A stretch of DNA of 63,900 nucleotides, filler included, from Hausera hauseri (Eukaryota): assembly GCA_046269625.1 (NCBI GenBank). It is 12 parts of 12 records of this genome, joined end to end, with 100 filler letters (N's around TTAATTAATTAA, not from the genome) between each part and the next. Parts side by side here need not be neighbours in the genome. Positions count along the whole stretch, not along the records: positions 27,011 to 31,245 come from JBJURY010684328.1; positions 31,346 to 36,482 come from JBJURY010324272.1; 10 more parts are not named here. One strand, given 5' to 3'. The notes beneath the pieces are model-generated. The model was not told the DNA's origin. It did no database searches and saw only the letters and a list, made by a program, of their open reading frames with translations. Each line of letters opens with the position of its first letter. Position 1 is the first letter of the stretch. Position numbers and translations under genes: made by a program. Positions 22,904-63,900 of the stretch are shown in pieces.

Positions 22904-25900
22904 CGATATCCTTCACAGGCTTCATAATTCGACCATTTTTTCCTGCATTAATTTACACAAAGCATACCACCAAATTCAGGTGGCTCCAGCAGACATTCCG
23001 ACAATGGCTGTCTAACACCTTTCGGCCTTTTCGAATAATTTTCATGCCTTTTGTCTCCGTAGCGCTTCCCAGACCTTCCAAAGGCATATTGATACAGTTC
23101 TCTCACATATAGACTTTATTTATCCCTATATCGATGATATCCTAATTGCATCATTTTCCTCGAAAGAACACTCCGAGTACTTACGTTTAATTTTCCAGCG
23201 CTTGCACCAAAACAACTTGCAAATTAATTTCGCCAAATGCTTTTTTCCAACATAATATCAACTTCTTAGGACATGTTATTAGTTCCTCCGGACATTCACC
23301 TCAGCCAAAGCGCATCACACAGCTCAAAAACATACAACTACCACGTACATCAACAGAGATGCGTTTTTTCCTCGGAATCTTGCACTTTATTCATAAGTAT
23401 ATTCCACACTGCTCCACTCTAACCGTTCCATTTGTATCACTAAGCTCTGGCAAGAAAAAACAGCTTATTCAATGGACCGCCAAGCTAGTCAACGCTTTCG
23501 ATCACCTCAAAGATAATCTAAAAACCGTCGAAATCCTGGCCTATCCCGATTCCCATGCAGAACTCTTCTTAAACACGGATGCATCCACAACAGCTGCAGG
23601 TTCTGTTCTCCATCAAGTCAAAAATGGATTCCATGACCCATTAGAATTATGTTCTCGAAAATTCACGGCACAAGAGCAAAGATATTTCACCTTTTACAGA
23701 GAGTTGCTTGCAATGGTCCTTGTCATAAAGCACATTAAGCATCTGCTAATTGCACGAACCTTTACAATACAAATGGACCACAAGCCCTTGCTTCAAATTC
23801 TCACCATGAAATTGCCTTCTCCACGTCAGGAGAGTCAAATATCGTATTTGTCAACATTTAATTTTGAAACTAAACACCTAAATGGAGTCGACAATTTAGT
23901 AGCTGACTTTTTGTCCCGATTGGTCAGCTCGACTGATTTTACACCAATTTTCCGTCAATCCAAACTTTAACAAAACCAGCCACCTCCTGACATTATTAAA
24001 TCTTTTAAATCGTGCAAAACCATCGACGGTGTGGCCTTTGACACCTCCAAACCTAATAATTCTAAAGTCATCCTTTCTGAATCGCTTTAAAAAGAAGCAT
24101 TCTACAACATCCATTCGTTGCATCTCCCGGTACCAAGGCTACTTTTCGACTCTTACAAAGCCAAGTAGTATGGCCGTCGATGCGCTCTGACGTGCAGGCA
24201 TGGGTTAGGCAATGTGTGGCATGCCAAAAATACAAAGTTACTAAGCACTTAAAGCTATCACTATATCATTTTCCCTGCACGTCTCGTTTTGAATCTGTCC
24301 ACACTGACCTTGTATGCCCACTACCCTTAGACAACGTCCATCAGTTCATTCTCACAATGATGGACCGTTCCTCGCGATGGCCAAAGGCCGTCCCGTTTCG
24401 GAGAACCAACACAGAAACAATCCCAGACGTTTTCATCCGCACTTGGATCAGCATGTTTGGATCATCTCGCCACATCACTTCGGACCAAGGCCCACAGTTC
24501 GAATTCAACTTGTTTATAGCTCTTGTTAATCAATTGGGAATTAACCACATTCACACGTCACCATATCATCCTCAATCGAATGGCCTTCTCAGAACGCTTT
24601 CGCCGAACGATGAAAACGTCTCTCAAAATCCTTGCTGAGTCCAATCGCAGTTGGACTACTATCCTTCCGTACGTTCTTCTTGGCTGGCGGAACATACCAT
24701 CTACGTCTACAGTCTATTCACCTGCAGAAGCATTATTTGGTACTTCTATCAGACCATTATTCGATCTGGCTGAGCTGGACAATACTCCTACAGACGAAAC
24801 CATACTTCGTTGCGATTAGCAAAGACTCATTTTGTAGACTATTACACGGAAATAAACCTTACATGCCCGATGATCTATATACTGCCAAGTTCGTATGTCT
24901 GAAGAATCAGACGCCACGTGGTTTTCAACCTCAGTATGTTGGACCTTACAAAGTAATTCGTTTACACTCTCACAACATTATTCTCAAGGACGAAAAAGAA
25001 GTAACAGTCCACATCAACAACACTAAACCGGTGTTCTTCAATGACGATACGTCTCCCATCGAAACCACTTTTACACCAACATCTTTACATAACGCGCAGC
25101 AATCCAGCAATTAACCTCCCATCTCTGCTCAGTTCTTTAACCCACTTTTCCCTACTTTTTCTCCCAAGACATCTACTTCAATTTTTACTGACAGTTCGTC
25201 CTCCTTTTTCCCAACCCGATTTTGCACCCTCAAGCCTTTAACACCTCCTCCATCTCCTAGTGACAACTTTCTTTCTCCTGTTACAAGGCCTCCTCCGCCA
25301 GGCACCACTTCGACTTCACCAATCTCTCCATATACCCCTTTCATCATTCAGCCTCTTTCATACCACCTTCCAACTACTTTTCTTCGCCTTCTTCATCTTT
25401 TTTCTCTTTTCCGCTTTGTCCCTTTTCGCCGTCTTCTCTGGCTCTCTCTTTCTCCTTCCACACCTTCCTTATCTTGGGCATTTTCTTTCTCCATTTCTCC
25501 TCACATATCTTCTTTTACCCCTTTCATTTCCGCTTCGCAACTTCCTACTCTCTCTACTTCTATCCTTATCTCTTTTCCTCTCTCTACCACTAACTCTGTT
25601 TCATCTTCCACTTCCACTCTGTCGCCTAATACAATTCCAACTTCTATTTCAAATTTCCTCTCTTCTCATTCATTCTCTACTACACCTCTTGTTAGTCTCT
25701 TGTCTTCAAACACTCTCTTAAACACCTTCAACCATCCATCTACTACAATCTCTCTTCCTACTTCGCCTTCTTCTTCTTCTCTTTTTTCTGACTCGTCTTC
25801 GCATGACGCAACACTTACAACAAAGTCCGATAATGTTTTTCCACAACTTCAAACTCTTCAAGCAAACACATCGCATAAAGACAAAACACGCACAGTCACA

Positions 25901-26320
25901 TGTAGCAAGTATATCAGGGAAAAATCAGCAGAAGGCATCCAGCGTCTTGTTCACACTAAGACCAACTGACATAGATACTTTTTCGTTTTGCGATTTTTTC
26001 TTTCCGTCTCTTACTCTTTATAGTTTTCACTTTGCCACGGAGGGTGATGTGGTGCCCGCAGTAGCCGGTCTCCTTTGACCCATTTGGTTGGGCGCGGACG
26101 GGCGTCCGCTGCCGCCGCGCGGGCCCATAGGCGGGCTCTATCTTCTGCCTCAAAATTTCACAGTCCCTATCCTACTCAAAATATTCGTGCACAAAAAGTA
26201 TTAATTGTGAAATCATCAGAGACAATGAACGAAGCAAAAGCGACGACGTCGCCGAGAGAAAGCCGAAACTAGTCTGTTAAATGCGCAGCATCATTTTCTC
26301 TCAAACAATCACATCAACAA
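22904..26320 (+). mobile_element. Family A copy 3: RT-RH-IN, long S/T/P tail, PPT, 3' LTR (starts 26048, right end uncertain)
   Basis: PYIDDIL, NTDAS, MDHKPL, WVRQCVACQ, TSDQGPQF, YHPQSNG, YVGPYKV; PPT GGAGGGTGA then TGTGGTGCCCGC. Confidence 0.9.
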
Positions 26321-26555
26321 TCAAACCCATTCGAATTCAATGACAAGCAACAATACGTTTACATCTCACTGTCACGGTAACAATCAGATTTTTTACACAC
26401 TATCCGGTATTCCAGTCGAATGCATCGCATTGCAGCTCGAATTCTGTCAGAAACGCGGTTTGTAGCAGGTCAGAATAATCATCACTATTAAGGATCGTCA
26501 AAACCATTTCATGAAAAAGACATTTTTAAATTTGAAACTTCTTTGTTCGGCATAA

Positions 26556-26910
26556 AATGACAACAGCAGTAACAAAAAACGAGGTAGGCTCCTGCGCCGG
26601 TTTACTGAAGGAAGGCTAGTGCCAGAAAATGTTACAGAAAAGTGCAGGTCAGAAGGAAGAAAAGTACAACTGAAATCCAATTTCACAAATTTTAAGTTAG
26701 CATTAGAAAGTCCGTTTCATATGTATGACGTCAAAATCGAAAATAAAACTTTAAGAACAAAGCTTGAACCTTTTACTTAGTTATCAGCAAAAGTAGCAAA
26801 TGGACAGTCATTTTGTTATGACGGTCGTCGGTTGTTTACCACCACGAAATGGAATCAGACGGATATTGAAACGTTTACAGTAAATGATGTGCAAATATCA
26901 TTGAGATTGT
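26556..26910 (+). pseudogene. PIWI/Argonaute N-terminal domain fragment with in-frame stop, cut by the contig end
   Basis: RLVPENVTEKCRSEGRKVQLKSNFTNFKL...FHMYDVKIE...PFT*LSA...FCYDGRRLFTTTK matches the Argonaute N-domain pattern G..(I/V).L..N.F...Y.V...(Y/F)DG..LF; TAG at 26778-26780. Confidence 0.65.
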
Positions 26911-27083
26911 NNNNNNNNNNNNNNNNNNNNNNNNNNNNNNNNNNNNNNNNNNNNTTAATTAATTAANNNNNNNNNNNNNNNNNNNNNNNNNNNNNNNNNN
27001 NNNNNNNNNNAGATACTGGGATCGTTGAGTAGTGGTCAACAGTCGGATTATTTTAATGTGTCCTCCACTCATCAATTCTATAA

Positions 27084-28082
27084 TTAATTTAAATCGGCTT
27101 TCCACGGTCGGCGGTAGATAACCTTTTTTTCCTTGACTTTGATTTCCATTTGTTCCATTACAGTTGGATGAGTTTCTATCTCTCTTATTCCGGCTATGTG
27201 TGTTACTGGTATCTTAAATTTCTCTATCATTCTCTCTACTTGATACCCCACTATGACGTAACCGTATAGACAATGTTCTGCTTCCTCTTGCATTAATTTG
27301 GAATCTTTTCCTTAAATTAACTGTTCCCTTTTTAGTCCGGTTACTTCCGCATAGGTTTCCTGTACTTTCTTTCTTGGGTTAATGATTTTTGAATAGACTT
27401 TGGCCCCGTTTATTTCTCGTATAGATATTTCAATTGGGATATAATTTCCTTCGTCTCCTTCCCCATAATTTATCACGACAATTCTGATATTCCTGTCATC
27501 TGTTACTAGTCTATTTGAGTGTAGATGTGCGTTTTGTTCTTCTTCAGTGGGCCTTTGTCTGAACTCTAATGGCGGCAATGAAATGGTTGTTGTTTCCTCT
27601 TTGGTTATTTCAACCATTAGTTTCACGGATAAGGCAGCTATGCGAAATTCCAACTCATAGTTGTGGTCGAGGAAATCCTTGCTATTAAATACGAAGGTGC
27701 TATATCTACTTTGTCTACCTTGAAATGAGTCCCATTTTTGGTCCTTCAACCGATAATAAATTTCTCCGTCGGCTAGGTCTATGAATAATTTCTGTTCCTT
27801 GTCGATCTTGTAGTGGGCTAGCTTGCGTACATCATATGCTTTCGCATCTCCATCTTCTCGCCATGCATATAAATAAATGGTCCTAGCTTCTTCCGTAGTT
27901 CCCTTAAGACTATTCGGAATGTTATTGACTTTTTCGTATTGGATGAAGGTTTTCCCTTGTAATTCCGTGTTGATCTGCCTGTAAATAGATTTGGAATTTG
28001 GAATCCGGACGGTCACGTATTGTTGCAAGAATCTGTCGATACTGAATCGGCTCGTGTTCATATTGATTTGGTTACTTACCAA
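27084..28082 (-). pseudogene. Accessory ORF with catalytically dead DEDDh (REX4/ISG20-like) exonuclease domain
   Basis: IRIVVINYG...IEISIREINGAKVYSKIINPRKKVQETYAEVTGLKREQL...QEEAEHCLYGYVIVGY follows the REX4/ISG20 pattern but lacks the ExoI D-x-E. Confidence 0.6.
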
Positions 28083-28181
28083 TCTGAAAAAGAAAACATA
28101 AAAGTTAATCTTAAAACAAAGTAGGGCTTTAAACCAAAACCAAGTCTTTGTTTGATGACAGAATAACCTGATCTGTAATTA

Positions 28182-29596
28182 TTAGGTTATTTTATCATAC
28201 GGGTGTACAGGATTTTCCAATCCCCTTAATTCCCATTCTAATCTTTTAGGACGCTTAGAATAATGATTTTTGGCAACTAATCGAAAAACCGCAATTAATA
28301 TAATGAGGACAAACGTTGATAGTACTGCAATGGATACAATCGGTAAGACGGTTAATCCTAGCGGTGCTTTGGTAGTCACTGGAGTTGCAATTTCGTCGTC
28401 CCTATCCGCATATAAGTTCGGCTCTACACGAATTTCGTCTAGGGTACGTAATGTGATAGTTTGGTTTTGCTTATTCTCTGCATGCACTTGTACTATGTAT
28501 TCCGATTGTGGTTTTAGTAAATTGTACTTTGTTTTTTACATGTAGTTTTAAATAATGTTACAATTTGATTATTATACGTTGTTCGACAACTTATGTGTAT
28601 ATCTCAATTTTGTTTCCTTTCTACAAAAAAACACGATTTTAAATCGGTGTACCGAATATCTAATAGGTACGCTTTTCAACTTTGCTTTAGGTATGTTGCT
28701 CGCCGCCTCAATTCGGGTAGTTGGGCTAACCTTAGTGGTTGACTCTTTGGTCGTGGTTTCCACCAAAAATTTCCAAATTCTTTTTTCTTGATAGTAAGTT
28801 CGTAATTGTATACTTGGTTTATTGGGTCGTACCTCGTATAAGTCGAACTTTATTTTGAACTCCTGGTTTGTGGGTAGTTTGCAACAGGGGTGTTGTACAT
28901 CTTCACGAATAGAACAATACCCTATCTTCGGGGTTGGTCCTTTTATTGCTTCGAAGGGGATACTACTTTCTCGACTGACCGTCAGTTCTGTCTGGGCGTC
29001 TATTTGGATGCATCGTTTTCCCTTGTTTACAGAGATTCTCTGGATATTTTCATCTAATAGTTTTATATCGGGGTCAGTGGATAGTAACATTTCATTAGGA
29101 TTTATTCCATAATGTCTGTTCCACGCAGGGATGACTAATTGGAATTGTGGCTTTGTTTCGATGTAAACTTCGGTCGAGTCAGGTAGATATAGGCGATAAG
29201 TAAGATCATAAGTGCGTCCAAAATCTATGTCGCAACACTGCATATAGTCTCTCGGTTCTAAATCGCAATTTTTCACTTCTTTTTTGTTACATCATGTAAG
29301 GCAATTTGAAATCTTCCGAAATCGTGGTGTTGCCTCCAAACCTTAAATCCGACACATACGGAATGTGGTGAGAAATAATGGATTGTCATTGACTGCAATA
29401 ATTTAATATCTTTTCGTTTTTCAACTTCTTCCGGGGTTAATCCTTTCTTATCTGGTTTGTTCCTCGCCTTTATTCCACTTTTCCGAATTCCGTTTACATC
29501 TCTTAGCGTAGATTCATCGTGCCACCATTGAGTTTGTGTTCTCGGAATATAATAAGCAATTAACAATAATGCTAAAACTATTTGAACGTACGATAT
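28182..29596 (-). pseudogene. Type-I membrane protein (signal peptide, two Cys modules, Thr-rich linker, FN3-like domain, TM) fused in frame after integrase
   Basis: Signal-like ISYVQIVLALLLIAYYIPRTQT (29596-29531) in the GPY-containing ORF; CDLEPRDYMQCC and CSIREDVQHPCC; FN3-like YNLLKPQSEYIVQVHAEN; TM IVSIAVLSTFVLIILIAVF. Confidence 0.65.
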
Positions 29597-32500
29597 CGGT
29601 CTAGCAATTATTGAAGAAACTTTTAACTCGCGTTGGCGTAAATTATAACGTTTACTGGGCCGTATCTCTGTCTTGACAACTCTTTGTACTGACACGACTT
29701 CTTTCTTTCCATTTTTGTTGATATATACTGTGGTTGGCGTCGCTCTGGTAACTTCGTACGGTCCTCTGCCTGTACGAGTCAATTTTAGTGAGGTATCTTT
29801 CTTGGCTACTGGATAATGTAGATAAACCCAATTTCCCAGTTCCAAATCATGTGGTTTCGCTTTCTTATCATACTGATTTTTAAACTTCTCCTGATATTAT
29901 TGAGATAACGCCTTAGCGATTTCCCAACACTTTTTCAACCGCATCTGTAGCACTTCTGCAAAATTTTGTTCTAAGTCTTCGGGATTGACCGTGTATGGCG
30001 TCATTCCTAAATCCGTGGGTAACACGGTTCACGTCCATACATCGTGAAAATGGTGTAAATCCTGTTGCTGGATGTGGAGTGGTATTAATAGCAAACTGAG
30101 TTCCTTCTAAAAATTCGTCCCAATCTTTTTGGTCCTTCGCTACTACTGTTGATAGTATGAGTATGACGGTAGCATTCATCCGTTCGACCATTCCATTACA
30201 GTGAGGGTGATATGCGGTGGTATAAATCATGTTCCGACGTTAGCACTTTGGTTCGTAAACTTTTTGGAATAACTATCAATTTCCTTCCTTTCCGTTTGTA
30301 ATATAAATTATCCTCATTGCTCTTGCCATTTAAGACGCAGTATTAATGTCCATGTCTGTGTAAATGTTTCTTTAACTGTCGTCCCTTTGGTATGATATCT
30401 TTTTTAGCAAATTCTATAATCTGCTGAATAATTTTATCCTTTCTTTGTTCTGAGAGGATTTTAATTTCTTTATCCAGTGTTAAGGCACGTTGGCGATCTA
30501 CTATTGCTTCAAGTTGGCTTTTCTTCATTACCGTGATTGCGCTTGTTTTAGTCTTTAATCTCGATAGTGCATCGGCATCTACATGTTTATTTCCTAGCTT
30601 ATACTGGAATTCGATATTGTATCTCGATATTTCTTCAATCCATCGTTAAGTCTGCATGTCGAATTATTTGCCCGGCCTTTTAAGGTGGTAACGGCCTTGT
30701 GATCAGTGACAATTATAATTTTCTGTACGTATACGTAAACGTTGAAGTGGCGAAGTGCTTCTTTTACGGCTAGAGTTTCTAATTCTGTAACAGAATAATT
30801 TTTTTCGGCCTTCTTCAAGGAACGTCCTCCATAAGCAGCAGGATGTTCTAATTTTTTATCTTCTTTTTTCTGCGCTAACTCATATTCAATACCTTCTTTA
30901 TTGGCGTCTGTCTTGATTATAAAGCGTAAGTTAAAGTCTGGGTACCGTAAAACAGGTTTACTTGTTAATATCTTCTTCATCTCATCAAAAGCTTTCTGTT
31001 CGACGTCTGTCCATTTCCATTTATTCCCTTTTTTAAGTAGCCGATATAAACGTTCATTAATTTTCGAATTATCTGGCACATAGGTTGCGTAATATCCGCA
31101 TAGTCCTAGCCAGGGACTTAACTCTTTTTGGTTTTGTGGTGCCATGCAATCTGATATTTTGTTTAATAATGATTTATCTGGTTTCGATCCTCCTTCTCCA
31201 ACTATATGGCCAGGGTAGGATACTGCGTTCTGGGCCCATTTGCATNNNNNNNNNNNNNNNNNNNNNNNNNNNNNNNNNNNNNNNNNNNNTTAATTAATTA
31301 ANNNNNNNNNNNNNNNNNNNNNNNNNNNNNNNNNNNNNNNNNNNNCAAGTGTTGGGAAATAGCCAAGGAATTATCCAGGGAATAGCAATAACAATATAAA
31401 GGGCAATATGACAAAAAGGCTAAACCACACGACCTAGAACCAGGAAATTGGTTTTATGTACATTACCCAGTAGCAAAGAAATGCACGTCTCTTAAACTCA
31501 CCAGAACAGGCAGAGGACCTTACGAGGTTACCAAAACCACACCAACCACAGTTTATATAAACGAAAATGGCAAGAAGGAATTCATATAAGCCAGAGAGTA
31601 GTCAAAACGGAAATAAGGCCAAGTAAGCTTTATAATCTGCGTTCGGGAAAAGCAAAATTGGATTATACGAACAAAGAAAAGAAAACGTCGTCGATAGTGA
31701 TTAGACCAATATCGTATGTACAAACAGTCCTCACCTTATCGTTAATCGCTTCGTATATACCAAAGACAAGGTCGATAACCCTAACCGAAAAACTACAATA
31801 TGCGACAAGACGAAAGGATATGCAAAACTTACAGTCACGATATGGATTGGAGCAAACCATGTGCATGGCTTGAAGCAAGTGAACCTATTCAGAGTCATGT
31901 AAAATTTCAAATAATATTAAGATCCACGATGAAAACATGCGATTTCCCGTACGGAGCTCATAGGAAATGTTGTAATTTGGAACATACCGATACAAATTTC
32001 AAACGTTCTATTATAATCAGTCCGGAGCTCAAGCCTATATAATTACTGAATTCTTAATAAGAATGCCTCAACGAAATGACACGAATCGAGCGAAGACGGA
32101 TAAAATAATCCAAAATACTGACCCATTTAAAAGCTCTTAGATTATACTATTATTGGGATTTCCAAAGACTTAAAGAACCAATGTATTCGAATTGAGACCA
32201 AAATAGAACTGCTAGGAGACAGACAAATTTCTGTCCGATTTATACTACTGAACGCCTCGGTTCCTATTCCGGTGTATTGTTATATTGCACAACGGCGGTT
32301 TACTGCGTTCTGTAGATTACAGTTAGGACACAACTACCAGTTACAGTTCGATCAGTACAACACTTAACCTAAAGAATCGAGTACTCACTTACGAGGATAC
32401 CACCCAAAAATCGGAATATGGAAGCTTCCGTTTCCAACCACTACGAGGAAACCTTACATTGTTCCAAGTACAACTCTCACTACTGCGATCGTCACTTCGG

Positions 32501-33107
32501 ATGAAATGATCGAAAAAAAACTAGGGAGCATACCGGTTAAGATTTTGGCAAAAGTAATAAAATTCTATTTTACGCTGAAGAAACCTTAAATCAAGACGTC
32601 AAAATTGAATGACGCACCCTGCACACCAATCAAATTATAATCCTAAGAAAGAATAGTCAGGAAACCGAATGAAAATCATTACGACCGCAGCATAACTATC
32701 TAATCCGAATCACCGCGAAAGGTAATAAACTTTAAATTTTTATAGTACGAACTCTTGACAACAAAATTGAGGTAATGCGGTATGAAGATCTTAGTACTCA
32801 AAATGCGTTTACTACGAAGGGTTCTATTGAGCCAAACAATTTAACAAAAATAGGTATATTTAGTTTGTCAATTTTCGTTCTTGTCACATTAACGGCGATG
32901 ATTTACCTAGCTTCCAAAAATTGTAATAAACGCGGTGAAAATCGAAATGGAGATAAACGGGTGAAAGGGTGCCGAGACGGACTTTATGATAGCATAACCT
33001 AACAATTACAGATCAGGTTATCCTGTCATCAGACAAAGAAAATTTTTTGCTTCAAAACGATAATCTGTCTTAGGACTGACATTTATTTTTATTTTAGCAG
33101 AATAAGT

Positions 33108-35569
33108 ATGGCCGAAAAGGCGAAGAATTCAGCAATCACCTCCAGTCGTGACATAGACGATTTCCTGCAACAACATGTAACAGCCCTCAAGCCAACATCT
33201 AAAAGCTTATATCGCCAAATTGAAGAAAATCTGAAAAACAAAACATACGTTGAAATCGATCAGGAAAGTAAAATACCAATTGGGTTGAAATGGGGTTTAG
33301 AGGAAAATCGACTGATTCGGTTATACGTAATGCGAAGCTTCAGAGATGCACGAGCATACCTCTTGAGAGATATGATTCCATATGAACCGACACATCAGCA
33401 ATTGTACATACATGTCGCTGATGTAGAAATTCAGCACAGGATCGTAGGAAAATCCTGGAGCACAAAAAAGGGACAACAATGGAAATTTAGCACTTATGAG
33501 TTATGTTGCTATAGTCTTATGAACTATGCCTTGGAATTCAGAATCGCAGAACTTCCAACCAAACTCATGTTCGAAATGACCTGGCGGACAGAAGTAATGA
33601 GACCGCTACCACCATTACTATGCATACAAAATCCTTCAGAATATGAGATAGAACAGAATGGAAAATTTTAAAGGCTAGTTCCAGACGGCCGAAACACTTG
33701 AATTTTAGCCGTGAACTATGGAAAAAAGGATGACGTATGGTATACACCAATCGAAGTTTCTATCCAAAGTACTAAGGGGGAAGAACTTATAAACAAAATA
33801 CTTGCAACTAGTACTATGGTGAAGGATACCTTTCCCGATGTTACCGGAATTATGAAAGTGCAACTCGAAAAAGGGAAAGATTCCTTGGAAATCCAGGAAG
33901 ATAAAAGCCATTGCTATATGGATGTATTGTAACCGGATTTCGAGTACACAAAATGTTAGAAAGACTAGGAGTTAGACAAGACTATATAGCCGGAATTAGT
34001 GAACTGGGTCGAAATCCAGCGGTTTTAAGCCAAGTAGAAAACACCTTAATGAAGAAAAGAGGATGCCTTCTTCCGTCAGCATTACGTGAATAACTGTTCA
34101 AAATTATGCTAGAATCCATGAATGGTGAGCGATTCAGATTTCCTAAATTGATGTCAACTAGTCAACGAACGAGGCTTATAAAAGATATTTATGCCTCACT
34201 ACGAACGGAACATGAGTGGAAACCTAGGAACCCTACACAAAATGTGATGCCAGACAACAATCCAAGAATTTTATTACAAAAATTCCGAAAAGTATTTAAC
34301 AAATACCCAACATATAGACAAGTTGAGCCTCAAGGACACAACAGATGTCAAGTAACCGTTCACAACAGCTCAGTTAGAACGGCCTGCACCCAACACAAAC
34401 CGTCTACCAGCTAAGCTCGAAATGAAATGGAAATGGTCCTCAAAAGAACAATATAAAGTCTAAAACCGAATATCAGAAAAGTTCTAAGAGGACAAAAGAT
34501 GAAAACTTCCTTTTTGGAGTACATTAGCAAGAAGAGAAGTAAAACCAGTAAGAACCTGAACGAAGAAATGAAACCATCTGCTAACCTTCTCACGCTCTAC
34601 GAACAAGCAAACGGATCTAAGGACGAACCCAAAATAGCGGAAGTCGAAAATTCCGACGACATCAAGATGAGAACTGCTGATACAAAGCCCCGTAAGACAG
34701 AAGTAAACGTTCTTCGGAAGAATTGGGAAGAAGATGAACCGATCATAGTCATGGAATTTGGCCAAGTAAAGGAATATACCAGAATGCTCGTCATGGCCGA
34801 ATATTACAGCAAAGGCAAGATCAAGGAAACCGTATTCTACGTATCCACTGTTCCTAGGAGAATCGTAAGTGGGAATGGATACGCTCGGGAGGACATAACC
34901 ATTGGCAAATACTTAGTCCCAATATTCCAGTCGAAAAACGGTACAAATAGATTAACCATTCCGGTAGATACCCAAGTCCGAATACAATTAAAAAGGCAAT
35001 ATAAGAAAACCGGAATACCAGACTTAGACCAACAAGAAATCGTTGAATGGACGTTAGTCACCGTGTCAGATAACCCCAAGAAAAGCTCTATAGATCCGAA
35101 ACAAAAACGACTATATGGATACCTATATCAAGATAAAAAGGGACTAGTATTTGAACGAATAGAAGTTGACGAAAACCTCGTAGACATAGACGAAGGGGCG
35201 AAAGAAGAGTGCCTTGTTTGTGATGCCAATCTCTACCAAGGATTCGTAGTGTTGGATAATAAAGACTGTACCCACAAGTACTGCCGGTACCGTTTAGAAA
35301 CGTGGACCCTTAAAAATGGGAGGACGACCTGCCCCGTATGTAGAGCTGAGGCCAAAAGACTGAGGTATTACGTCAATGGAATAAATAAAAAGGTAGTGGA
35401 GATATTGCCCCAAAAACCCACTACATCCTACCACTTTGACCCGCAATCACCGCAAGACGAATCGTATTCGGAAGCGGACCTACGTGAACGAATGAACCGA
35501 TTACGCGGCACCTCTTCTGACGGAGTGGGCATATCCGAGAGTGCCGTTCAGGGAGGAGAAATGTTGTAA
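33108..35569 (+). pseudogene. ~820-aa accessory ORF: unknown N-domain, dead DEDDh domain (~33680-34220), unknown domain, C3HC4 RING finger
   Basis: ORFs 33108 and 33711 share one frame; 33911, 34106 and 34499 share a second, so one frameshift plus a few stops. RING CLVC...CTHKYCRYR...W...CPVCR (one Cys lost) at ~35210-35345. Confidence 0.7.
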
Positions 35570-36039
35570 GAGATAGATTAAAGAAACTATGTACAAAGTG
35601 TAAATAACCACAAACGAAAGCGAAACTAGAAATGGAAATTGAAACTGAATTAGTGTTAATTCCAAATGCAATCGATGTAATTATTTAGACACAGAAATCT
35701 GATAGAAAATTGCATGCAAATCAGCAGAGAAATAGGAATTCCAGTCACCAGAAATTAAATAAAAAAAGAAATTCTGAACAAATTGCATGAAATTCTCTCT
35801 CACCGAAAACTCAGTCGCTATTAGACGTATAAATACTGCAGCTTAATGTACAAGAGGGAGAGTGATACACTGTCGCGAAATTTAATTCAGTAGCTGAAGA
35901 AAAGACTTAAACCGACTTGATATTGATTGATTCTTGTGCTGATATTCTACTGTTATTGAGTATATTTTATTTGTTAATAAATTGCCTTGTTTCAATTTGC
36001 ATAGTTTTCCGTCGCTCCTTACGAGGATCTAGTACTACA
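35562..36039 (+). repeat. 3' LTR of family B (~478 bp)
   Basis: Preceded by purine tract AGGGAGGAGAAA; TGTTGTA...TACTACA termini (6/7 inverted match); TATAAATA at ~35828 and AATAAA at ~35975 in the expected order. Confidence 0.7.
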
Positions 36040-36582
36040 TTAAAGTTAAACTGAAATTAAACTTCATAGCTAAGTCGAGAATTTTCTAAACTACGCAAGG
36101 CACAGCACGCAGTACACGCATCCTAAACTAGTGCAAACATTCTAACGAGAACGTTGGAACTTATCTGCTAAACCAATATTGTTAAAACTGAGTTTCATAA
36201 TTGTTATAGTTGGGTGTTGAATAGGACCCACTTTCAACTACTGACGTGTTCTTTTAATTATCGATTTATGGTGGTTTATTCACGCAATTAATATCATCTA
36301 ATATTTGGCGTATAGTCTGTGATCACTCATGCAATTGTTAATTAGACTAATCCGTTTTAGATTGACAGAACTTTTTCGTAGCACTATACAAAGAATATTA
36401 AAAAACACTGATTCGAGAAAAGAAGCGAATTTTTTGACAAAGTTCAAAATTCCTATTAGTAGTTGGGGAGACTTGAACATCTNNNNNNNNNNNNNNNNNN
36501 NNNNNNNNNNNNNNNNNNNNNNNNNNTTAATTAATTAANNNNNNNNNNNNNNNNNNNNNNNNNNNNNNNNNNNNNNNNNNNN

Positions 36583-37534
36583 AGCGGCCTGTGTGAGCCG
36601 CGTAGTAGCGCACCGGGACAGGCAGCTTGCCCCGCCCAGCGATGTCGATGAACCGCTGTGTGCGGGTCTCCTCGAGCGTAGACTTCACCCCGAGCCGTGC
36701 GGCAGCCAGCGCCTGCACCTGCGGGTCGTCATCTTCCAGCAGGTCCTTCATGCCCTGATCGCTCTTAGCCAGTGCGTAGGTCATGTTGCCCGTGGTGGGG
36801 CTGATCTTCATGGGGCAGGGCACCCCGAACTTACCGAGCAGTGCGGCAAACTTCGGGTTCGACATGAGGTCGGCCTTGTCCTCGACGCCAGCAGACTTGA
36901 GCAGGTCTTCCTTCATCATCTGCGTCTTACTGAGGTGCTCCTCGAGCCGCTCCCGGTCCAGCTCCAACGTAGGCTCAGTGAACATACGCAGGGTCAGGTC
37001 GATCAGCTTGAGCTCCGACTTCGGGAACCCCCGAGACAGCATGATGTTGAAGATGTCGTAGGTCAGGTCTACGTCATTGACACAGTAGCGCCCGTAGGCC
37101 GACAGCTCTTCCGGCGTGAAGTCGTTGCGGCGTTTCCCCTTGGCGTCCAGCACCTCGGTGCCTTTCTCCCCTACCCCGTAGTTTTCGGCGAGAGCCTTGA
37201 GGCTGGCACTCTTCTCGACGCCGTGGATCGCACGAGCCATGCAGAGCGTATCGAACAGCACCTTCGGACGGATGCCGAACCGCCAAGACATGATCGCACC
37301 ATCGAACATCATGTTGTGCGCCAGCACCGCAGAGTTGGCCCAGTCGTATGATGCCAGTGCTTGCTTGATCGCACCGTGCGTCCCGGTGATCCACGCAGTC
37401 TCGCCGTCGTTGACCTTCACCCCCACCCCAATGACTTGGAAGCGAGGGTCACGGATATATTCTTCCGTGGTGATCTTAGACAGCGAGTAGTCTTTGTCGT
37501 AGTAGGTCTCCGTGTCTATAGTAATTACGTCCAT
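36583..37534 (-). CDS. Phage family-A DNA polymerase, N-terminal part (3'-5' exonuclease + start of polymerase domain), truncated by contig end
   Basis: ExoI IDTET, ExoII AHNMMFDG, ExoIII YCVNDV, phage PolA motifs KSTLEETRTQRF and YYAAHTGR. Confidence 0.9.
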
Positions 37535-38082: not shown

Positions 38083-38093
38083 GATGGTTCTCC

Positions 38094-38705: not shown

Positions 38706-38707
38706 GG

Positions 38708-57675: not shown

Positions 57676-59705
57676 CGTTGGATTATTGGCTCTACCCTTT
57701 AAAGTCATAACGGCCTTATGGTCAGTTACAATTATGATCCTCTGCCCGTAAACATAAACGTTAGAATGTCTAAGTGCTTCCTTTACTGCTAGAGTCTCTA
57801 ATTCCGTAACAGAATAATTTTTCTCAGTCTTTTTCAAGGAACGTCCTCCATAAGCAATCGGATGTTCTAATTCTTCATCTTCTCTTTTCTACGCTAATTC
57901 GTATCCGATACCTTCTTTACTGGCGTCTGTCTTGATTATAAATGGTAACTTAAAATCTGGGTATCGTAAAACAGGTTCGCTTGTTAGTATTTCCTTCATT
58001 TCATCAAAAGCTTTCTGTTCGACGTCTGTCCATTTCCATTTAATCCCTTTTTTAAGCAGACGATATAGAGGTGCATTAATTTTTGAATTATCTGGTGCGT
58101 AGGTTGCGTAGTATCCGCAAAGCCCTAGCCAGTGTCTTAGTTCTTTCTGATTTTGCGGTTCCATGCAGTCGGATATTTTATTCAAGAGTGATCTATCTGG
58201 TTTCGATCCTCCTTCTCCAACTATATGGCCCAGGTAGGATACGGCATTTTGGGCCCATTTGCATTTCTTTGGATTTAATTTTAACCCGGCCTGTTCCAGT
58301 CTCATTAGTGTGTGCTCGATATCTTTTAAGTGTTCCTCTTCAGTTCTAGACGCTATCATTACGTCTTCCAGGTACGCGAAAGCATGGTCCAATCCCATTA
58401 GCATTTTGTTCATCATTCTCGTAAATATGGCTGGCCCAGTAGTAATACCGAACGGCATGACGTTAAATTCGTAAACACCGTCGTGTGTCTTGAACGCCGT
58501 TTTATAGCGATCTTCGTCTTCTATTTCCACTTGCCAATATCCGGATTGTAGGTCCAGAGTAGTAAACCATTTTGCTCCTGAGAGTCTGTCTAAGGCTTCT
58601 TTCACAGATGGTAAGGGGAAAGAGTCTTTCATCATAAGATTATTTAGAGCCCTGTAGTCGATACAGAACCGGTGCTTCGTAGTGCCTTTCTTTTTCACCA
58701 TGAGGATAGGCGAGTACCAAGATCGGTAACTGGACCTAATTATATCCGCCTTCAGCATCCGTTCGACTTCTTTTGTTATCTCCGGTCTTAACGAATGTGG
58801 TGGAGTGTACCATTTCGGCATTTTCTGATCTTCTAAATCTATTTCTTCATTTGAACCAGTTTTCTTCTTGAGCGAAATAGTTAATTTTAGTGCTATTGCT
58901 CTACCAATATCCTCTTCATCCTTAGCAATAATAGATTCATAAGGGCATAATAATTCATAAAATTGACAGTAAGACTCCGGTGAAAACTTGGTGTCGACGT
59001 GCGGTGGAAATTCGGCACATTTATAAGGTTTTTCTTCGATAGTTATCGAGGATACTCTATATGTATCGCCCAGATTGGTGTAAGCATGGAGTTTGAAGGG
59101 AGTCGGTGCATTGTTCGCTATTCGCATCGGTATGCGACCGGAGTGTACTCTCGTAAGTACGTTACTAAGTGTTATATTCGGATTTAACGTTTCATTTGGT
59201 TCAAAATATACTGGCTAATCGTCGTCTTGCTGGATTTGTGCGTAAATTATTATTTCTGTTCTTGGTGGGATATTCTCGTCTACTGGTATCCATACTTCTC
59301 CAAACTTTCTATCCTTAGCGTTTTTTACGCCTTTTTTAATCTAGTTCCGATTAACTTCCCTGTTTGTAAGTCAATCGCTATATTCGGTAGCCTTTTTAAT
59401 AAATCGCATCCTAGGACAACGTCATCGGTTAGATGTTCCATGATTGCAAATTCGTGTCGAAATGTCTGTCCAACTAACTGGACTTCCGGATTCCATTTAA
59501 ACATTGGTTTTGACATTTGACCAAAAGCTCCTGTACTACCTGGATCTTCCGTAGATGGGAGGTATAAGTGTCCTCTTAGCGTTTGAGGTATTGAGTCATT
59601 TTTGAGGTAAGATATCTCGGATCCTGTATCGATTAATGCATAAAGTTCCCAATTCTCAATAATAATTTTGACGAAAGGCCTTCTTCGATCACGGTTCCAG
59701 AACAA
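57676..59705 (-). pseudogene. pol: Family B Pol (PR-RT-RH)
   Basis: ORFs 59325-59705, 57889-59127 and 57676-57837. Confidence 0.92.
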
Positions 59706-62193
59706 TTCGTTGCTGCCCTTAAACGTCTAGTAGCCGATATTCTGTATCCGTTTATTGTTACTTCTGGGGCGGATACTGTTTGTTCCGATAAGTGTCTTAA
59801 TTCTCCGTTCGGATATAATTCATTATTTCCTACCTGAAATTCTTCCATTTCATGAGTACTAATTAGAGGTTCCCGATTATTAGTATGTAATTCAGTATGT
59901 TGGAAGGTTTTAAATCTTGAGTTATCCCAAACTGTCGATCTAGTTTCGATATTCTTCGTTTCTCTTGGTGAGTATATCATTTTAGGGTCCTCCGCGGATT
60001 GGCGGTAACACATTTTCCTTAAAATTCCATATCGTTTTGTTCCTTCATAGGGATCCTTTACATTAATTGTCCTTTTATAAATTTCTGTCTGATATGAGCT
60101 CATGGACCGTTTGTCACAATCATCGTAGAATGGAGCGGTAGGGGGTAGCATAGGCAATGGTGCTTTAACGACAGAGTACATCTTATGTCTACCTATTCCC
60201 GGAAGTGCTTCTCCTCCCTTAGGCTCGTCATCATCGGAGTTTTTCCTTCGTGTAACGGTTTTTACAGATTTTCGTTTCCGTAGGAATATCGGTCTTCCTC
60301 TTCGTTTACGATTATAGTAACCGACGTGGCGTTCTACGCCCGATTTCCATCTACTCTTTTCGTATGCTTTCAGGAATTTTCCACAAGGCGTTATGATCGC
60401 GGTCAATATCTTACAAGAAAATCCAGTTAGTGTGAATATTTCGTATCCGTTTATTACAGCTTGGATGACTGCCTTAATCATTTGGATCAGAAAATATATC
60501 GCCAAAAATCCTGATGCGGCCTGTCCGAATATCAAAAATCTTCCCCAAATTTTGTAGAGTATTTCTGTTGTTACTCTCTTATAGTGATTTACGCCAAGTA
60601 ATGATTCCCATTTAGCCTGATATCTGGTGTCGTCTACTACAGATGCCATTGCTCCATTTAGCTCATGTGTTCGTTACCGTGGAAAAGCGAGGAATTGTCT
60701 GAAAGCCTCGATTTCCTTTGGCCTGTATATGTACCTTTCGTTGAGGTGTCCTGAAATTTGTCATCTGTAATCCCTTTTGCTAGATTTGTTCCTGTCAACT
60801 TGTTGGGAGCGGTAGTAATGCCTCCATTAGGTAGACTAACCCAGTCGGTTTCGCTGCATCTAAACATTGGCTCTCCTAAGCTCGCTTTACAATCCTTAAG
60901 AAGGGTCGGTTGTGTCGCATTGTCTAATAACACTCTCGTCAATGGCGTAGCTAATCTTGGAATATTTTGATAAATAACGGGAAGCTCTTGGATGCAACGT
61001 TTTTCTTCTACGTTGATAGGTACTTCTCTCTTTTCGCATTCATAGGTTAGCAGTACTTCGCCCGTAACTCGACCGAAAATTCCTTCTCTCATGGGAATTA
61101 TTGGGGAAGCCAATTCTGGGTTTGCATATATAAGAGCCATTTTGGTTCTCATAACTTCCGTATCTAGTTTACAGTCATTCATTATCATCTTGTGATATAA
61201 TTCTGTTATTCCGACTTGTCCTTTATAATAGAAGTAATCGTCTCTGTTTTTCAGATAATCTTCAATCCGAACATCCTGCGTTTCCAATTTGTAAGTTCTT
61301 GCGTTTATCTCTGTTTCGGCCACAAAGAACGCTTCATAGTTTGTAGCGAACATTACTACATCGCAGCGAGTCATCATTTCTTTTTTTATAAATTTTAATC
61401 CATGCGGGTCTGAGATTAATATAGTCGGTGTATGGTGTTCCGATACATCTTTGCGTGTCCTTGTGTTAGTTTCTGATTTATCTACATATCTTTTCCCTGT
61501 AGTTTCGTTAAATTTGAGTTCTTTAATTTTAATAAAATTACAATTTCTTCCTGAAGGAGGTTCCCATATTACAATCGAGCTCCTAAAAGCACAGGTTCCG
61601 TCTTGTAAGTGACATTTTTGATTCTCAGTGTATAACTTAGTGACGCTATGGAACATTACCTTTTGTGACCGAATTTCTGATTCGTAGAAATCTACAACCA
61701 CAACGTTTGATTCTAACCCTTTTCCAGTGTCGTATTCTGCTCCATTACAGTGTCAGCTATGCATATCTAGACTTCCAGCTACTACTTTGTATGCCCTAAT
61801 TATTTTTCCGGATTGCATTTCTAATTGCATACTATCCCATTGTATTCTTCCAGTTTCCTTAGCTTGTTTGCAATGTTGACGTTATAAGTTCATTGGGATT
61901 AATGGAGTTGTTGGTTTAATTATAGATGAATGTCCATGAATTAACCCACAGTGAAAAATACTACGTGATCGTTTCAGCACACATTTCACTCCATCCAACG
62001 ATATCAGTTCTTGTTGTTGATATAGGAAGTAACTTTTCTCTCTTGTTTTTAGTTTGTGCGGTATGGCACCCTCGCATACTTCTACATCCATTAAGGAATA
62101 TCTCTGTCCTAACTTAAACTTTTCGCAATCATATACGGTTACCGCACTTATATGCTTTATTAGCATTAATAAGGTAAGCAAGCTAATTAGCCA
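59633..62193 (-). pseudogene. env: Chuvirus-type (class III-like) envelope glycoprotein with signal peptide, TM region and long cytoplasmic tail, upstream of protease
   Basis: Signal WLISLLTLLMLIKHISA (62193-62143); VYDC..YSLMDVEVC..YQQ..KCVLKR..FHCGLIHGHSS; HCNGAEY; FGRVTGEVLLTYEC; CIQELPV; TPLTRVL; KIWGRFLIFGQAASGFLAIY..IKAVIQAVINGY.. These follow the recalled chuviral G pattern. Two stops and one frameshift. Confidence 0.8.
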
Positions 62194-62913
62194 ATTTGAT
62201 TCATTTTTCCGACCTCCAACGTCTAATGTCGTCAGGTTGCGCAACATCTCATCGGGTTTGTTATTGTTTCGTTTGTCTTTTTCTTTGTCAAGTAGTTTTG
62301 TCCAATTTACTTCGCAAGGCATTCTTCTTGCTGCTTTTCGTGCTAAGCTTATAGCCCGATTAATTTCATTTTCTCGGTTGGGGTTTATTTTAATAGTTAA
62401 GTATAGTACTACCTTCCTCAATTCCTCATTCGTATTTTCTACCATAATCTTTTCGATTACCGTTTCTTCAGTTAAATTGCTTTTCGATAGTTTGAAACGT
62501 GAACTCCGCATCGCTTTGGCTGCATCGAAAATTATCTTTTCTTTATCATCTAAAACGTCTCCTCGAAAACTAGAATAATTCACAATTCGTATTAAATTTT
62601 TCATCAACTCACTTAATTCCTCATTTTCGGTGTTAAGGGTCGGAATCGACATCTGCCTCAATTCCTTAATTAGCTCTCCGTTGTAATCCACTTCTTCTCG
62701 CACCTTCCTAGGTCTGCCTACTGGACGTTTTGGTCTTGGGCCTTTAGGGGTTGCTTCGCTTAGCGGTACCAAATTTATGTCGTACTGTGCTTTATCTTCG
62801 TCCGTTTGTAGATACTCAAAATATAGTGCGGCGTCTCGGACTCCCATGATTTGTCCTACGCATTGTTCTGTTTCGGTTTTACGTACAGCTTCTTCTTTCG
62901 TCTGTTCGTTCGC

Positions 62914-63138
62914 AATTACTACCACTATCCGATTTGTTTCGTCAGGAATAATCCCGACGTCTATTAATTGTTCCAATTCATCTAATATTCTACCTCTAAA
63001 ATAGAATCTATAGTTTAACTCGTTCGTTTCACCATTGTTTACTAGCCATTCTCTTACGTCCCTTACGTAGGAGTATGTAGTCAACTCGCATTCTTTTTCG
63101 TCCATTCATTCGGATGACACCATTATTTTTATCGTCAT
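62914..63138 (-). other. Integral ubiquitin-like domain (no di-Gly) in family B polyprotein
   Basis: MTIKIMVSSE*MDEKECELTTYSYVRDVREWLVNNGETNELNYRFYFRGRILDELEQLIDVGIIPDETNRIVVVI aligns by eye with ubiquitin ([21 protein letters not shown]). Confidence 0.7.
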
Positions 63139-63900
63139 CTCAGGTTTAGCCTTTAAGATTTTAGCGTATTTCCTTATCAAAAGTTTCGGTACCGTACTGT
63201 AAATCGTGTTTTCGCTAGACAATTTAGTTAAAGTTGGAATAAGTTGTCGTAGTTTATTCTTAGTAATATTTATGTTAATTAATTCAATGAAATCCTTTTC
63301 AGTTAGCTCTGAATCTAGTAGCATCTCCACATTGAATCTCCTGTCTCGCGGACATGTTTCGATTTCGTTTAGTTGTACTGGAGTCATAGGTTTTCCGGCA
63401 AGTATTTTGTCAAAGTATGAATCCCATTCGGGTTCGTTTCCGACATTTGGGAGTCGGTAGTCCACTAAATCTGTGTTGGCTTTTTGAATGCTTTCTCGAA
63501 TTTCCCTTAATCTAGATTGTATTTCTTTCATTTGCGTAGTTCGGAAACCTACTCCATTTCCACAGGCACATTGAATCATTTTTAGTAGTTCGCCGAATTC
63601 GTTCGGGCCAACCAGCCCTTTCTGGTGATATTCTGTCAATTCTTTTACCATCTTTGCACAAATTCTCGTTTATTCTTAATCTCTAATTCGGTGAAAGCAC
63701 ATTTGTTTAGATAGACTTCGAGCTCCTTTGTTATTTCCTCTAACTTTGTCGCTCTATGTTTCGTCTTGATATATGTTTCTTCTACTTTCTGTATCTTGGG
63801 ATTAATTGCCAAATCTCCTCATCACTGATTGCCGCCATTTCCACCAATAAATAGGCTAACTCATACAGCTCATTTATAACCTTCGAATCAGGGTCCATTG

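Follow-up and report, generated by a model that had tools for sequence, protein, structure and literature searches.

The DNA analysed here, a window of 63,900 nucleotides made of 12 joined contigs, carries a Ty3/gypsy element in which the integrase is followed by a real, element-encoded type I membrane glycoprotein with a signal, three FN3-like domains, a Thr-rich spacer, a stalk, a transmembrane (TM) helix and a tail of about 30 amino acids. Comparison of the copies demonstrated the anatomy and homology of this protein, purifying selection on it and the continuity of its frame with the integrase end. The overall best explanation, which in our judgement could go either way, is a Pol-fused FN3-like membrane protein with a role in attachment or adhesion beside a separate fusogen.

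Copies of the element in the window

Three of the contigs carry pieces of related Ty3/gypsy copies, A, B and C. Copies A (contig 27011-31245, minus strand) and B (contig 31346-36482, plus strand) each hold the 3' part of the element on one contig. Copy C, 85% identical to copy A in nucleotides over 583 nt of RT/RNase H, is ordered as an ORF in the gag position, a class III fusogen (PF24664), protease and RT:

62196..63900 (-): broken ORF in the gag position, with no match to a Pfam gag family
60300..62193 (-): internal signal (62193-62143), class III fusogen ectodomain, TM (~60508-60452) and tail; broken
57676..59720 (-): protease (LIDTGS at ~59630, identified by motif reading), RT (RVT_1, E 3.5e-37) and RNase H (RT_RNaseH_2, E 2.4e-13); the contig stops before the integrase

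The internal signal, called from hydropathy like the other signal and TM segments of the window copies, is in frame with the gag-position ORF. Monjiviricetes_fusion (PF24664) is matched above the cut-off by three copy C pieces (E 2.8e-8, 1.8e-24 and 4.2e-16), which puts an env of class III (gB/chuvirus-like) after the gag-position ORF and before the protease. The family therefore has the upstream fusogen that the original prediction assumed, on a different contig and in a related copy; fusogen and FN3 tail lie on separate contigs here, and the link between them is the match of copy C to copy A. A four-letter env motif recurs in one Schmidtea element among 230 supplement rows, and is a lead only.

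The Pol order PR-RT-RNase H-IN fits Ty3/gypsy (Metaviridae), pieced together across copies C (PR-RT-RH) and A (RT-RH-IN) and found on no single contig. A GPY/F module (GRGPYEV) stands at the integrase C-terminus of both A and B and aligns with the integrase C-termini of gypsy Pol relatives. Troyka LTR retrotransposons, which are without env and without a GPF/Y motif (PMC12440569), were rejected because GPY is present here and the family has a fusogen. No long direct repeat was found within any of the three contigs, which span 4-6 kb and hold parts of the element only, and Rfam gave no matches in the window. All three copies are decayed, each with stops and frame changes, and the inclusion rule of PMC13524379 is for uninterrupted ORFs. 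We take A, B and C to be decayed copies of a Ty3/gypsy element of GAG-ENV-POL type from an invertebrate animal.

An FN3-like membrane protein after the integrase

The order after GPY and RYNLR is a signal-like stretch, three FN3-like beta-sandwiches, a Thr-rich linker, a TM helix and a short tail. The features of copy A are:

30657..31245 (-): RT end and RNase H, the region matching copy C (87% in amino acids over 195 codons)
29916..30239 (-): integrase core piece (Pfam rve_3, E 0.019, weak)
29618..29932 (-): integrase C-terminal region with GPY (~29764-29756) and RYNLR (29650-29636); 80% identical in amino acids to copy B and matching gypsy Pol integrase C-termini
29528..29602 (-): internal signal-like sequence in frame with RYNLR; 11-residue hydropathy 2.97; the equivalent stretch is residues 12-35 of the relative P0004
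29125..29410 (-), limits approximate: FN3-like domain 1, four Cys; maps to P0004 residues 76-165; frame change near 29280
28762..29063 (-): FN3-like domain 2, four Cys; 33% amino acid identity to copy B; pLDDT ~62 in the P0004 model
28715..28760 (-): Thr-rich linker, from sequence; also in B, P0004 and P0005
28440..28680 (-): FN3-like domain 3 with an LxPxxxY motif; 37% amino acid identity to copy B; pLDDT ~45; frame changes near 28620 and 28540
28284..28340 (-): TM helix; 19-residue hydropathy 3.03; a long helix in both models
28182..28283 (-): basic cytosolic tail ending in YDKIT and a stop

The corresponding features of copy B are:

31347..31660 (+): integrase C-terminal region (GPY, LYNLR)
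31703..33002 (+): signal, three FN3-like domains, Thr linker, TM (~32856-32912) and tail ending in YDSIT and a stop at 33002; several breaks; tblastn of P0004 E 4.5e-32 and 8e-20

The motifs quoted in the original prediction were found in both copies where it had put them. The signal-like stretch is RPISYVQIVLALLLIAYYIP at 29602-29543 (-) in copy A and starts with RPISYVQTVL at 31703 (+) in copy B, and the FN3 motif is LLKPQSEYIVQVHAEN at 28520-28473 (-) in copy A and SLRPQHNYLIRITAK at 32676-32720 (+) in copy B. Two C-x9-CC modules lie between the signal and the Thr-rich run of copy A. These modules are themselves FN3-like domains, hence three domains and not one.

The fold was modelled on P0004, an intact natural homologue of 479 aa (E 4.8e-46), using a 9-row alignment; a single-sequence AlphaFold run of a window copy, with X at the stops, was discarded (pLDDT 34, only the TM helix formed). 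The P0004 model has three sandwiches at a mean pLDDT of 50. Domain 1 is a 7-strand sandwich (pLDDT 53-82), and domain 2 is an internal repeat of it, none of 1000 shuffles scoring as well. In Foldseek against the PDB the top matches of this intact relative were FN3 fragments of three domains each, from fibronectin, Tie2 and gp130 (best E 6e-6; 60 matches at E<=1e-3). VIA placed domain 1 at Z 6-7 to cytokine-receptor and FN3 domains, with a maximum of 7.2 (rmsd 3.0 A over 89 residues) and no match at Z 8 or more; LIF-receptor (Z 7.2) and IL-31-receptor (Z 6.7) complexes were among these matches, but bacterial Ig-like domains and further FN3 proteins scored equally. In the structure search of BFVD, phages and large DNA viruses contributed FN3/Ig matches of a generic kind (best E 1.2e-4), and no specific relative appeared.

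Sequence and language-model searches gave weak hints of the fold. Pfam fn3 (PF00041, cut-off 25 bits) reached 13 bits (E 0.12) on P0005 and gave nothing on P0004 or the window pieces. PDB sequence searches returned only matches at E~0.3-1, which included tenascin-R and contactin-1 for domain 3 (E~1) as well as an irrelevant glycine receptor and designed kelch proteins. In Atlas features all 10 best family-bearing matches fell in the FN3 family or its clan, with a score of 0.87 for the top named one, at the level of a lead. The P0004 model, of moderate to low confidence, points to an FN3-like ectodomain, best supported for domains 1-2. The original prediction of an FN3-type domain was right about the fold and wrong about the number. 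No fusogen match for this protein was found in Pfam, and none is named among the listed PDB or BFVD matches; the modelled FN3-like architecture argues against its being a viral fusogen and agrees with the earlier reading of a second membrane protein distinct from the fusogen.

Relatives of the tail and of Pol

A search of 1.84 billion representatives with no length limit found two homologues of the FN3-like tail only, and no host donor gene for the ectodomain. A profile of three sequences returned P0004 alone and a word-index search of proteins of 647-2000 aa gave no match; both searches, and the one for RT relatives (proteins of 773-2205 aa), are blind to a full gag-env-pol-tail polyprotein of ~3000 aa.

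The RT relatives are all 33-47% identical. In a quick tree of 120 database relatives, with weak support and long branches, P0007, the best RT match by blastp, is the sister of copy C (SH-aLRT 82). P0007 is an uninterrupted Pol in which GPY and PYNFR are followed by a hydrophobic signal-like stretch, then by a Cys-rich module, and finally by a TM and a tail; no other of the 120 Pol relatives has a TM-like segment beyond GPY/F. Homology between its ectodomain and the FN3-like one is undetectable (134 of 1000 shuffles score as well).

Probable translation as the end of Pol

The frame from RYNLR to the signal is open in both copies, with no stop and no Met in between, and the linker differs in length by 27 nt between A and B with the frame kept. 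The open frame extends back to GPY only in copy A (207 codons), where the open stretch upstream of the signal has no Met; in copy B there is a frame change between GPY and LYNLR. The proposal that the membrane protein is translated in frame with the integrase C-terminus is therefore upheld from RYNLR to the signal in both copies and from GPY in copy A. The stops upstream of GPY, at ~29898 in copy A and at ~31384 and ~31390 in copy B, fall at different aligned codons and so are not a conserved terminator. Nor was an acceptor-like splice site found upstream of the signal, the best pyrimidine fraction being 0.73 (A) and 0.67 (B), and the single strong acceptor of each contig sits just after the FN3-like ORF. 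With no stop, Met or acceptor between RYNLR and the signal and a strong acceptor after the ORF, the likeliest product is a polyprotein fused to Pol that signal peptidase cuts, and we consider it probable that the FN3-like protein is made as the C-terminal part of Pol.

The internal signal would thread the FN3 domains into the ER lumen, where signal peptidase would release them, just as the fusogen would be freed by the internal signal that follows the gag-position ORF. The predicted product would change sides of the membrane in register: Gag in the cytosol, Env in the lumen, PR-RT-IN back in the cytosol, the FN3 domains again in the lumen and the tail in the cytosol.

Perhaps the same protein is instead made from a separate ORF3, with its own start codon or a spliced leader, and the continuity of frame is a relic of capture. 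P0004 suggests this, being a stand-alone deposited ORF that starts with Met and has three Met in its first ten residues, one of them placed for a textbook N-terminal signal peptide. That Met stands two residues before RPISY, in a signal stretch nearly the same as that of the window copies; copy A has Ile and copy B Val there, each codon one base from ATG. However, the decay of the copies is estimated at ~0.08 (A) and ~0.22 (B) substitutions per codon, with 3 and 8 stops among 641 aligned codons; on this rough estimate, for both copies to lose a start codon independently would be a ~2% event. The missing acceptor upstream of the signal, the frame-keeping indel in the linker and the uninterrupted Pol-tail fusion of P0007 also argue against a separate ORF, which we regard as somewhat unlikely beside the Pol fusion.

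Selection on the FN3-like tail

The tails of A and B are joined by tblastx in the coding frame at 33-41% amino acid identity, and alignment in the other two frames gave only 21%. Selection was checked as pN/pS: the pooled 205 codons gave pS 0.75, with synonymous sites saturated, pN 0.40 and pN/pS 0.52 (bootstrap 0.43-0.64). By this comparison the FN3-like tail is under purifying selection, though both copies are broken.

That the tail is a passenger, a recent host gene fragment behind pol with no role in the element, or a chance ORF, is very improbable. Its narrow distribution (two relatives) and the broken state of both window copies would suit a passenger, but it has been kept through synonymous saturation in at least four diverged sequences, with a codon-position signature and a fixed place in the element, and no close host gene was found.

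The original prediction that the tail diverges faster than the integrase is real (33-41% versus 80% amino acid identity) but unspecific: the accessory ORF that follows, in which no TM was noted, has diverged just as far (42%). Given this equal divergence and the purifying selection, the fast divergence is no sign of an immune arms race. Conservation is uneven along the tail, the signal stretch being 65% identical in amino acids (pN 0.21) and the ectodomain 33-37%. This could mean that the selected function is a signal-anchor kept on the Pol C-terminus, tying Pol to the membrane of Gag-Env assembly, with the FN3 part secondary; the near identity of the P0004 signal and the layout of P0007, kept with an unrelated ectodomain, would agree. 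It is nonetheless quite unlikely, as all three FN3 domains, the Cys pattern and the TM are under purifying selection and needless for an anchor alone.

The tail end and the downstream accessory ORF

Beyond the FN3-like domains both copies carry further conserved features:

28155..28198 (-), copy A: conserved RNA hairpin over the last codons and stop; 13 pairs identical in A and B
32986-33029 (+), copy B: conserved hairpin
28084..28108 (-), copy A: splice-acceptor-like site (branch point, pyrimidine tract, CAG), the one of 119 YAG sites in the contig with a pyrimidine fraction of at least 0.8
33076-33100 (+), copy B: splice-acceptor-like site with a branch-point motif, the one of 145 YAG sites with a pyrimidine fraction of at least 0.8
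27016..28061 (-), copy A: start of the downstream accessory ORF, 42% identical in amino acids to copy B (E 2e-40); cut off by the end of the contig
33108..35569 (+), copy B: long broken accessory ORF with an unknown domain, a dsRNA-binding-like stretch and a RING finger

The hairpin is identical at 43 of 48 nt between A and B, and the 121-nt regions around it gave z -2.9 and -3.4. The Yxx(I)T end of the tail, read earlier as endocytosis-like, is kept in all four sequences, but the YxxI codons form one arm of the hairpin, so a constraint on the RNA may explain their conservation.

The downstream ORF had no notable Pfam match in copy A. In copy B the RING finger reached E 2e-4 in Pfam, below the cut-off, and the dsRBD-like stretch matched the TARBP2 dsRBD at E 0.67, a lead only; RNase III homology, suspected by eye, was unsupported by searches. 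We considered stop-codon readthrough from the FN3-like ORF. In copy B the stop is followed by CAA-TTA, which corresponds to the CAR-YYA signal in the available part of PMC2194720 (chance ~0.003), and the frame stays open as far as the downstream ATG. However, copy A has a second stop past that of the FN3-like ORF, the hairpin covers codons that a translating ribosome would unwind, and a strong acceptor precedes the downstream ATG in both copies. On these grounds the sequences favour splicing over readthrough as the route to the accessory ORF.

Possible function

Herpesvirus gD/gB and the paramyxovirus attachment protein with F are two-protein entry systems, and herpesvirus gB depends on separate receptor-binding proteins. 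Envelope-bearing retroelements are generally described with one env for both binding and fusion. For the element in the window we propose the same split of receptor binding and fusion as in those viruses, by analogy only, with no homology. The FN3-like protein may well reach the plasma or particle membrane and act there as an attachment or adhesion protein, a reading we hold about as firmly as we doubt it. It would bring the particle or producer cell to the target cell, and the separate class III fusogen would then fuse the membranes.

The FN3-like protein could alternatively be a host-modulating decoy on expressing cells, a mimic of a cytokine or adhesion receptor, or a block to superinfection, with no role in entry. 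Its disulfide-bearing FN3 domains, the LIF- and IL-31-receptor matches of domain 1 in VIA, gp130 in Foldseek and the RING and dsRBD-like parts of the downstream ORF, which suggest a host-interfering cassette, would fit such a role. The tied Z values, the divergence equal to that of the downstream ORF with no sign of positive selection, and a tail too short for a signalling domain make it unlikely.

Fibronectin, Tie2, the gp130 family, contactin and tenascin likewise have tandem FN3-type sandwiches above a TM helix. The FN3-like protein differs from animal FN3 receptors in its low identity (8-13%), its Pfam fn3 score below cut-off, its intronless fusion to integrase and its short tail. The element probably took its ectodomain from a host receptor or adhesion gene, and such ectodomains seem open to exchange between lineages. 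A tentative and rather doubtful generalisation is that one lineage of invertebrate endogenous retroviruses has two-component entry. A virus-derived class III fusogen between gag and pol would work together with a host-derived, exchangeable receptor-binding protein at the Pol end, made up of three FN3 domains in the present element and of a Cys-rich module in P0007; all would be released by cleavage of one polyprotein of alternating topology, and a spliced accessory gene of RING/dsRBD type would follow. If true, the element would count as a complex retroelement in which attachment and fusion fall to different proteins. The conserved receptor-like FN3 protein in a gB-type element is a concrete candidate tropism determinant, the tail would be a case of capture of a host-type ectodomain into Pol via an internal signal, and an overlooked class of Pol C-terminal membrane tails is predicted, which could be screened for in existing GAG-ENV-POL collections.

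Comparison with known elements

We found no description in the literature of such an FN3-bearing Pol tail. The nematode ERVs of Sacco et al. 2022 reportedly group with the GAG-ENV-POL HSV/gB-type errantiviruses. In the available text of Chary and Hayashi (PMC13524379), errantiviruses of this type from Nematoda, Bryozoa and Platyhelminthes have, as here, a Ty3/gypsy Pol and a class III fusogen between gag and pol. The available main text mentions no second membrane protein or FN3 after the integrase ('fibronectin', 'accessory' and 'attachment' have 0 occurrences), and the sole integrase C-terminal addition found discussed there is the chromodomain.

The giant planarian gypsy element Burro/GYPSM1 (PMC6431247, available part) also has a mononegavirus-like env in frame between gag and pol, a very long polyprotein and host-derived accessory domains including a RING-type motif. 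The extra domains listed for it, however, are intracellular (MATH, BIR, BCL2, ankyrin, SUMO-like, dUTPase), and those given a place are in ORF1, either before pol or inside it; that part mentions no FN3 membrane protein after the integrase.

The bdelloid rotifer elements Vesta4 and Vesta6c (PMC5408684, available part) resemble the present element in having small TM proteins with Cys downstream of pol. Unlike here, these are separate ORF3s of 210-230 aa, called env-like or env remnants, and the text available mentions no further fusogen and has 0 occurrences of 'fibronectin'. In the accessible part of PMC10309623, C. elegans Cer1 expresses a gypsy 3' accessory protein, CERV, from a spliced mRNA, as we infer for the ORF downstream of the FN3-like protein. 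CERV is a nuclear RNA-export factor and not a membrane protein, and is likened to the downstream ORF by its mode of expression.

A selected membrane protein behind the integrase

Three related Ty3/gypsy copies lie on separate contigs of the window. Its 12 contigs, joined by N-spacers, are short, mainly transposon fragments and of 33-42% GC with one exception at 60%.

27011-31245, minus strand: copy A, site of the FN3 tail, the predicted membrane protein after integrase (IN)
31346-36482, plus strand: copy B, homologous 3' region
57676-63900, minus strand: copy C, 5' part of a related element

Nucleotide identity is 85% between A and C (583 nt overlap in RT/RNase H) and 76% between A and B (291 nt of integrase). 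These are different insertions, and therefore contig adjacency in the window carries no meaning. The presence of gypsy and piggyBac-like fragments side by side points to an animal host. The motifs quoted in the original prediction were all located at their positions, and tblastx aligned the tails of A and B in the coding frame. Decay since selection has left 3 stops in A and 8 in B among 641 aligned codons, and frame changes in A near 29280, 28620 and 28540.

Divergence between A and B was followed by codon counts, region by region. Amino acid identity was 80% in the IN C-terminus (pN 0.12, pS 0.77), 65% in the signal stretch (pN 0.21, pS 0.71), 33% in Cys module 2, 37% in domain 3 and 41% in the TM region. 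For the pooled tail of 205 codons pN/pS was 0.52 (bootstrap 0.43-0.64, with pS saturated), and shifted frames of the alignment gave just 21% identity; purifying selection has thus acted on the tail as a protein. It does diverge faster than IN, as had been claimed, though not more quickly than the accessory ORF behind it (42%). The conservation of the signal-like stretch, at 29528-29602 (minus) and 31703-31774 (plus), lies far above that of the ectodomain behind it, which is unusual in a plain signal peptide.

Domains and modelled fold

A phmmer search of 1.84 billion representatives found two relatives of the tail, both ENA singletons: P0004, an intact protein of 479 aa with 33% identity (E 4.8e-46), and the shorter P0005 (189 aa). 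P0004 spans the tail of both copies in full, starting with RPISY and finishing with YxxIT, and holds three repeats with four, four and two cysteines. Domains 1 and 2 align better than any of 1000 shuffles, domains 2 and 3 weakly (29/1000 shuffles as good), and between domains 1 and 3 there was no alignment signal (725/1000).

An AlphaFold model of P0004, built from a 9-row alignment, predicts three beta-sandwiches (about 76-165, 191-261 and 334-402) followed by a TM helix (430-463), with a mean pLDDT of 50 (domain 1 mostly 65-82, domain 2 ~62, domain 3 ~45). Foldseek against the PDB returned 60 matches at E<=0.001, with three-domain FN3 fragments on top (fibronectin 10-12, E 6e-6; Tie2; gp130). 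In VIA-align, domain 1 matched a LIF-receptor complex chain (Z 7.2, rmsd 3.0 A, 89 residues), a score on a par with those of other FN3 domains and of Ig-like domains from bacteria, and no match reached Z 8; a BFVD structure search gave generic matches only. Further weak hints pointed the same way: Pfam fn3 on P0005 (E 0.12), tenascin-R and contactin-1 (E~1), and Atlas features, which scored 0.87 against FN3 proteins although recognition was low. Pfam did not assign the tail to FN3. The models thus support an FN3-like fold, as originally suggested, with three domains and not the single one proposed.

Probable translation with Pol and a probably spliced downstream ORF

In copy A the frame stays open, free of stops and of Met, over a stretch that begins ahead of GPY and takes in the signal. 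In copy B it is continuous from LYNLR onward, with a frame change between GPY and LYNLR, and a 27-nt length difference from A in the LYNLR/RYNLR-signal stretch keeps the frame. Continuity with the integrase end is thus borne out from GPY in A and from LYNLR in B. No conserved stop separates IN from the tail, and stops upstream of GPY fall at different codons in the two copies. Separate translation of the FN3 protein, a rival on expression only, would agree with P0004, read apart from its DNA context, which stands in the database as a separate ORF and carries Met in place of the Ile of A and the Val of B; we consider it unlikely, as independent Met loss in both copies would be a ~2% event by a rough decay estimate.

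Every YAG site was scored for pyrimidine fraction. A fraction of at least 0.8 was reached by 1/119 sites in A and 1/145 in B, at a homologous position ~100 nt past the tail stop, directly before the next ATG and with a branch-point motif in both; no YAG site upstream of the signal reached it in either copy. The downstream ORF is therefore probably spliced, resembling in this the Cer1 CERV (available text of PMC10309623), and the FN3 protein probably not. The ORF has the following parts.

33108-35569, plus strand (B) and 27016-28061, minus strand (A): long accessory ORF that follows the FN3 protein; N-terminal domain without assignment, 42% between copies
~34250-34450, plus strand: dsRBD-like stretch, TARBP2 E 0.67
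~35207-35345, plus strand: C-terminal RING finger, Pfam E 2e-4

It is a candidate modulator of RNA silencing or the ubiquitin pathway.

The end of the tail ORF

The 120 nt around the tail stop share 76% identity in the two copies (43/48 in the first 48 nt), and synonymous sites are conserved there (pS 0.34 after the stop).

28155-28198, minus strand (A) and 32986-33029, plus strand (B): RNA hairpin of 13 pairs across the YDxIT codons and stop, z -2.9 and -3.4

Its pairs are invariant, with no covariation between A and B. The Yxx-hydrophobic end, described earlier as endocytosis-like, is conserved in 4/4 sequences, but its codons lie inside the hairpin, which weakens the endocytosis reading; the motif may be held partly by the RNA element. 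The stop in B is followed by an open frame in a CAR-YYA context, the readthrough consensus in the available text of PMC2194720; A has a second stop instead. A branch-point-like CTAAY overlaps the tail stop in both.

Proposed processing and role

Copy C has the same device nearer the front of the element: its gag-position ORF, with no change of frame, leads to a hydrophobic signal and then the class III fusogen (PF24664). At ~59600-59730 (minus) its env-tail frame overlaps the protease frame, a different one, for ~36 codons, which may reflect a programmed frameshift or decay. The most likely product is a polyprotein whose topology alternates; signal peptidase and the viral protease would cut from it the class III fusogen and also a receptor-like protein for the surface, the latter perhaps at Pol-level abundance. 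The anatomy, selection and frame of the tail are observed and its fold is modelled, whereas processing, localisation and ligand are inferred. We prefer an attachment or adhesion role, at about an even chance, because gB-type class III fusogens can rely on other proteins for binding and because a tail of this length leaves no room for signalling. Service as a decoy seems improbable, and as a Pol anchor more doubtful still.

Of 627 Pol relatives the best 120 were compared, and in this set P0007, the top RT match, is the only one with a TM-like segment after GPY/F. A quick tree with long branches places it next to copy C with weak support (SH-aLRT 82). At residues ~1060-1349 its intact gypsy Pol runs on without a change of frame into a signal-like stretch, then a Cys-rich module, a TM and a tail rich in Tyr. 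The layout is the same as in the FN3 tail and the ectodomain is unrelated to that of P0004, so the signal-ectodomain-TM layout may be older than its FN3 cargo.

GAG-ENV-POL elements with a gB-type env have been described (PMC13524379), as has planarian Burro (PMC6431247), and rotifer elements carry small TM ORF3s (PMC5408684), according to the portions available of these papers; Troyka does not fit from the accessible part of its report (PMC12440569). Full-text searches of literature outside most subscription papers and Repbase turned up neither an integrase with an FN3 membrane protein fused to it nor a gypsy element that carries two envelope proteins. The FN3 tail is a real feature; the consulted text of PMC13524379 mentions no such protein, and that paper's GitHub data and figures may bear on its novelty. 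The weight of the finding is limited by the few relatives, the putative function and a fusogen link that runs across contigs.

Other contents of the window

36583-40655: contig of 60% GC, against 33-42% elsewhere
18767-20017, plus strand: 416-aa ORF with HUH-like (HHLHVLI) and Walker A/B-like (GSSNIGKTS, IIFDD) motifs
1-7807, 22904-26910, 49265-57575 and, weakly, 40756-45007: second gypsy family, 66-72% nucleotide identity between contigs
25115-25969 and 52271-53080: Ser/Thr/Pro-rich ORF of that family
42500-46300: piggyBac-like transposase fragments

The 60% GC contig is probably from another organism, so the assembly may be mixed. By its motifs we take the 416-aa ORF to resemble a CRESS-DNA virus Rep; Pfam gave no match to it. 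In the second gypsy family the integrase frame runs on into the long, pyrimidine-skewed Ser/Thr/Pro-rich ORF, for which Pfam gave nothing of note. The fragments at 42500-46300, from motifs read by eye, resemble piggyBac-type transposases.
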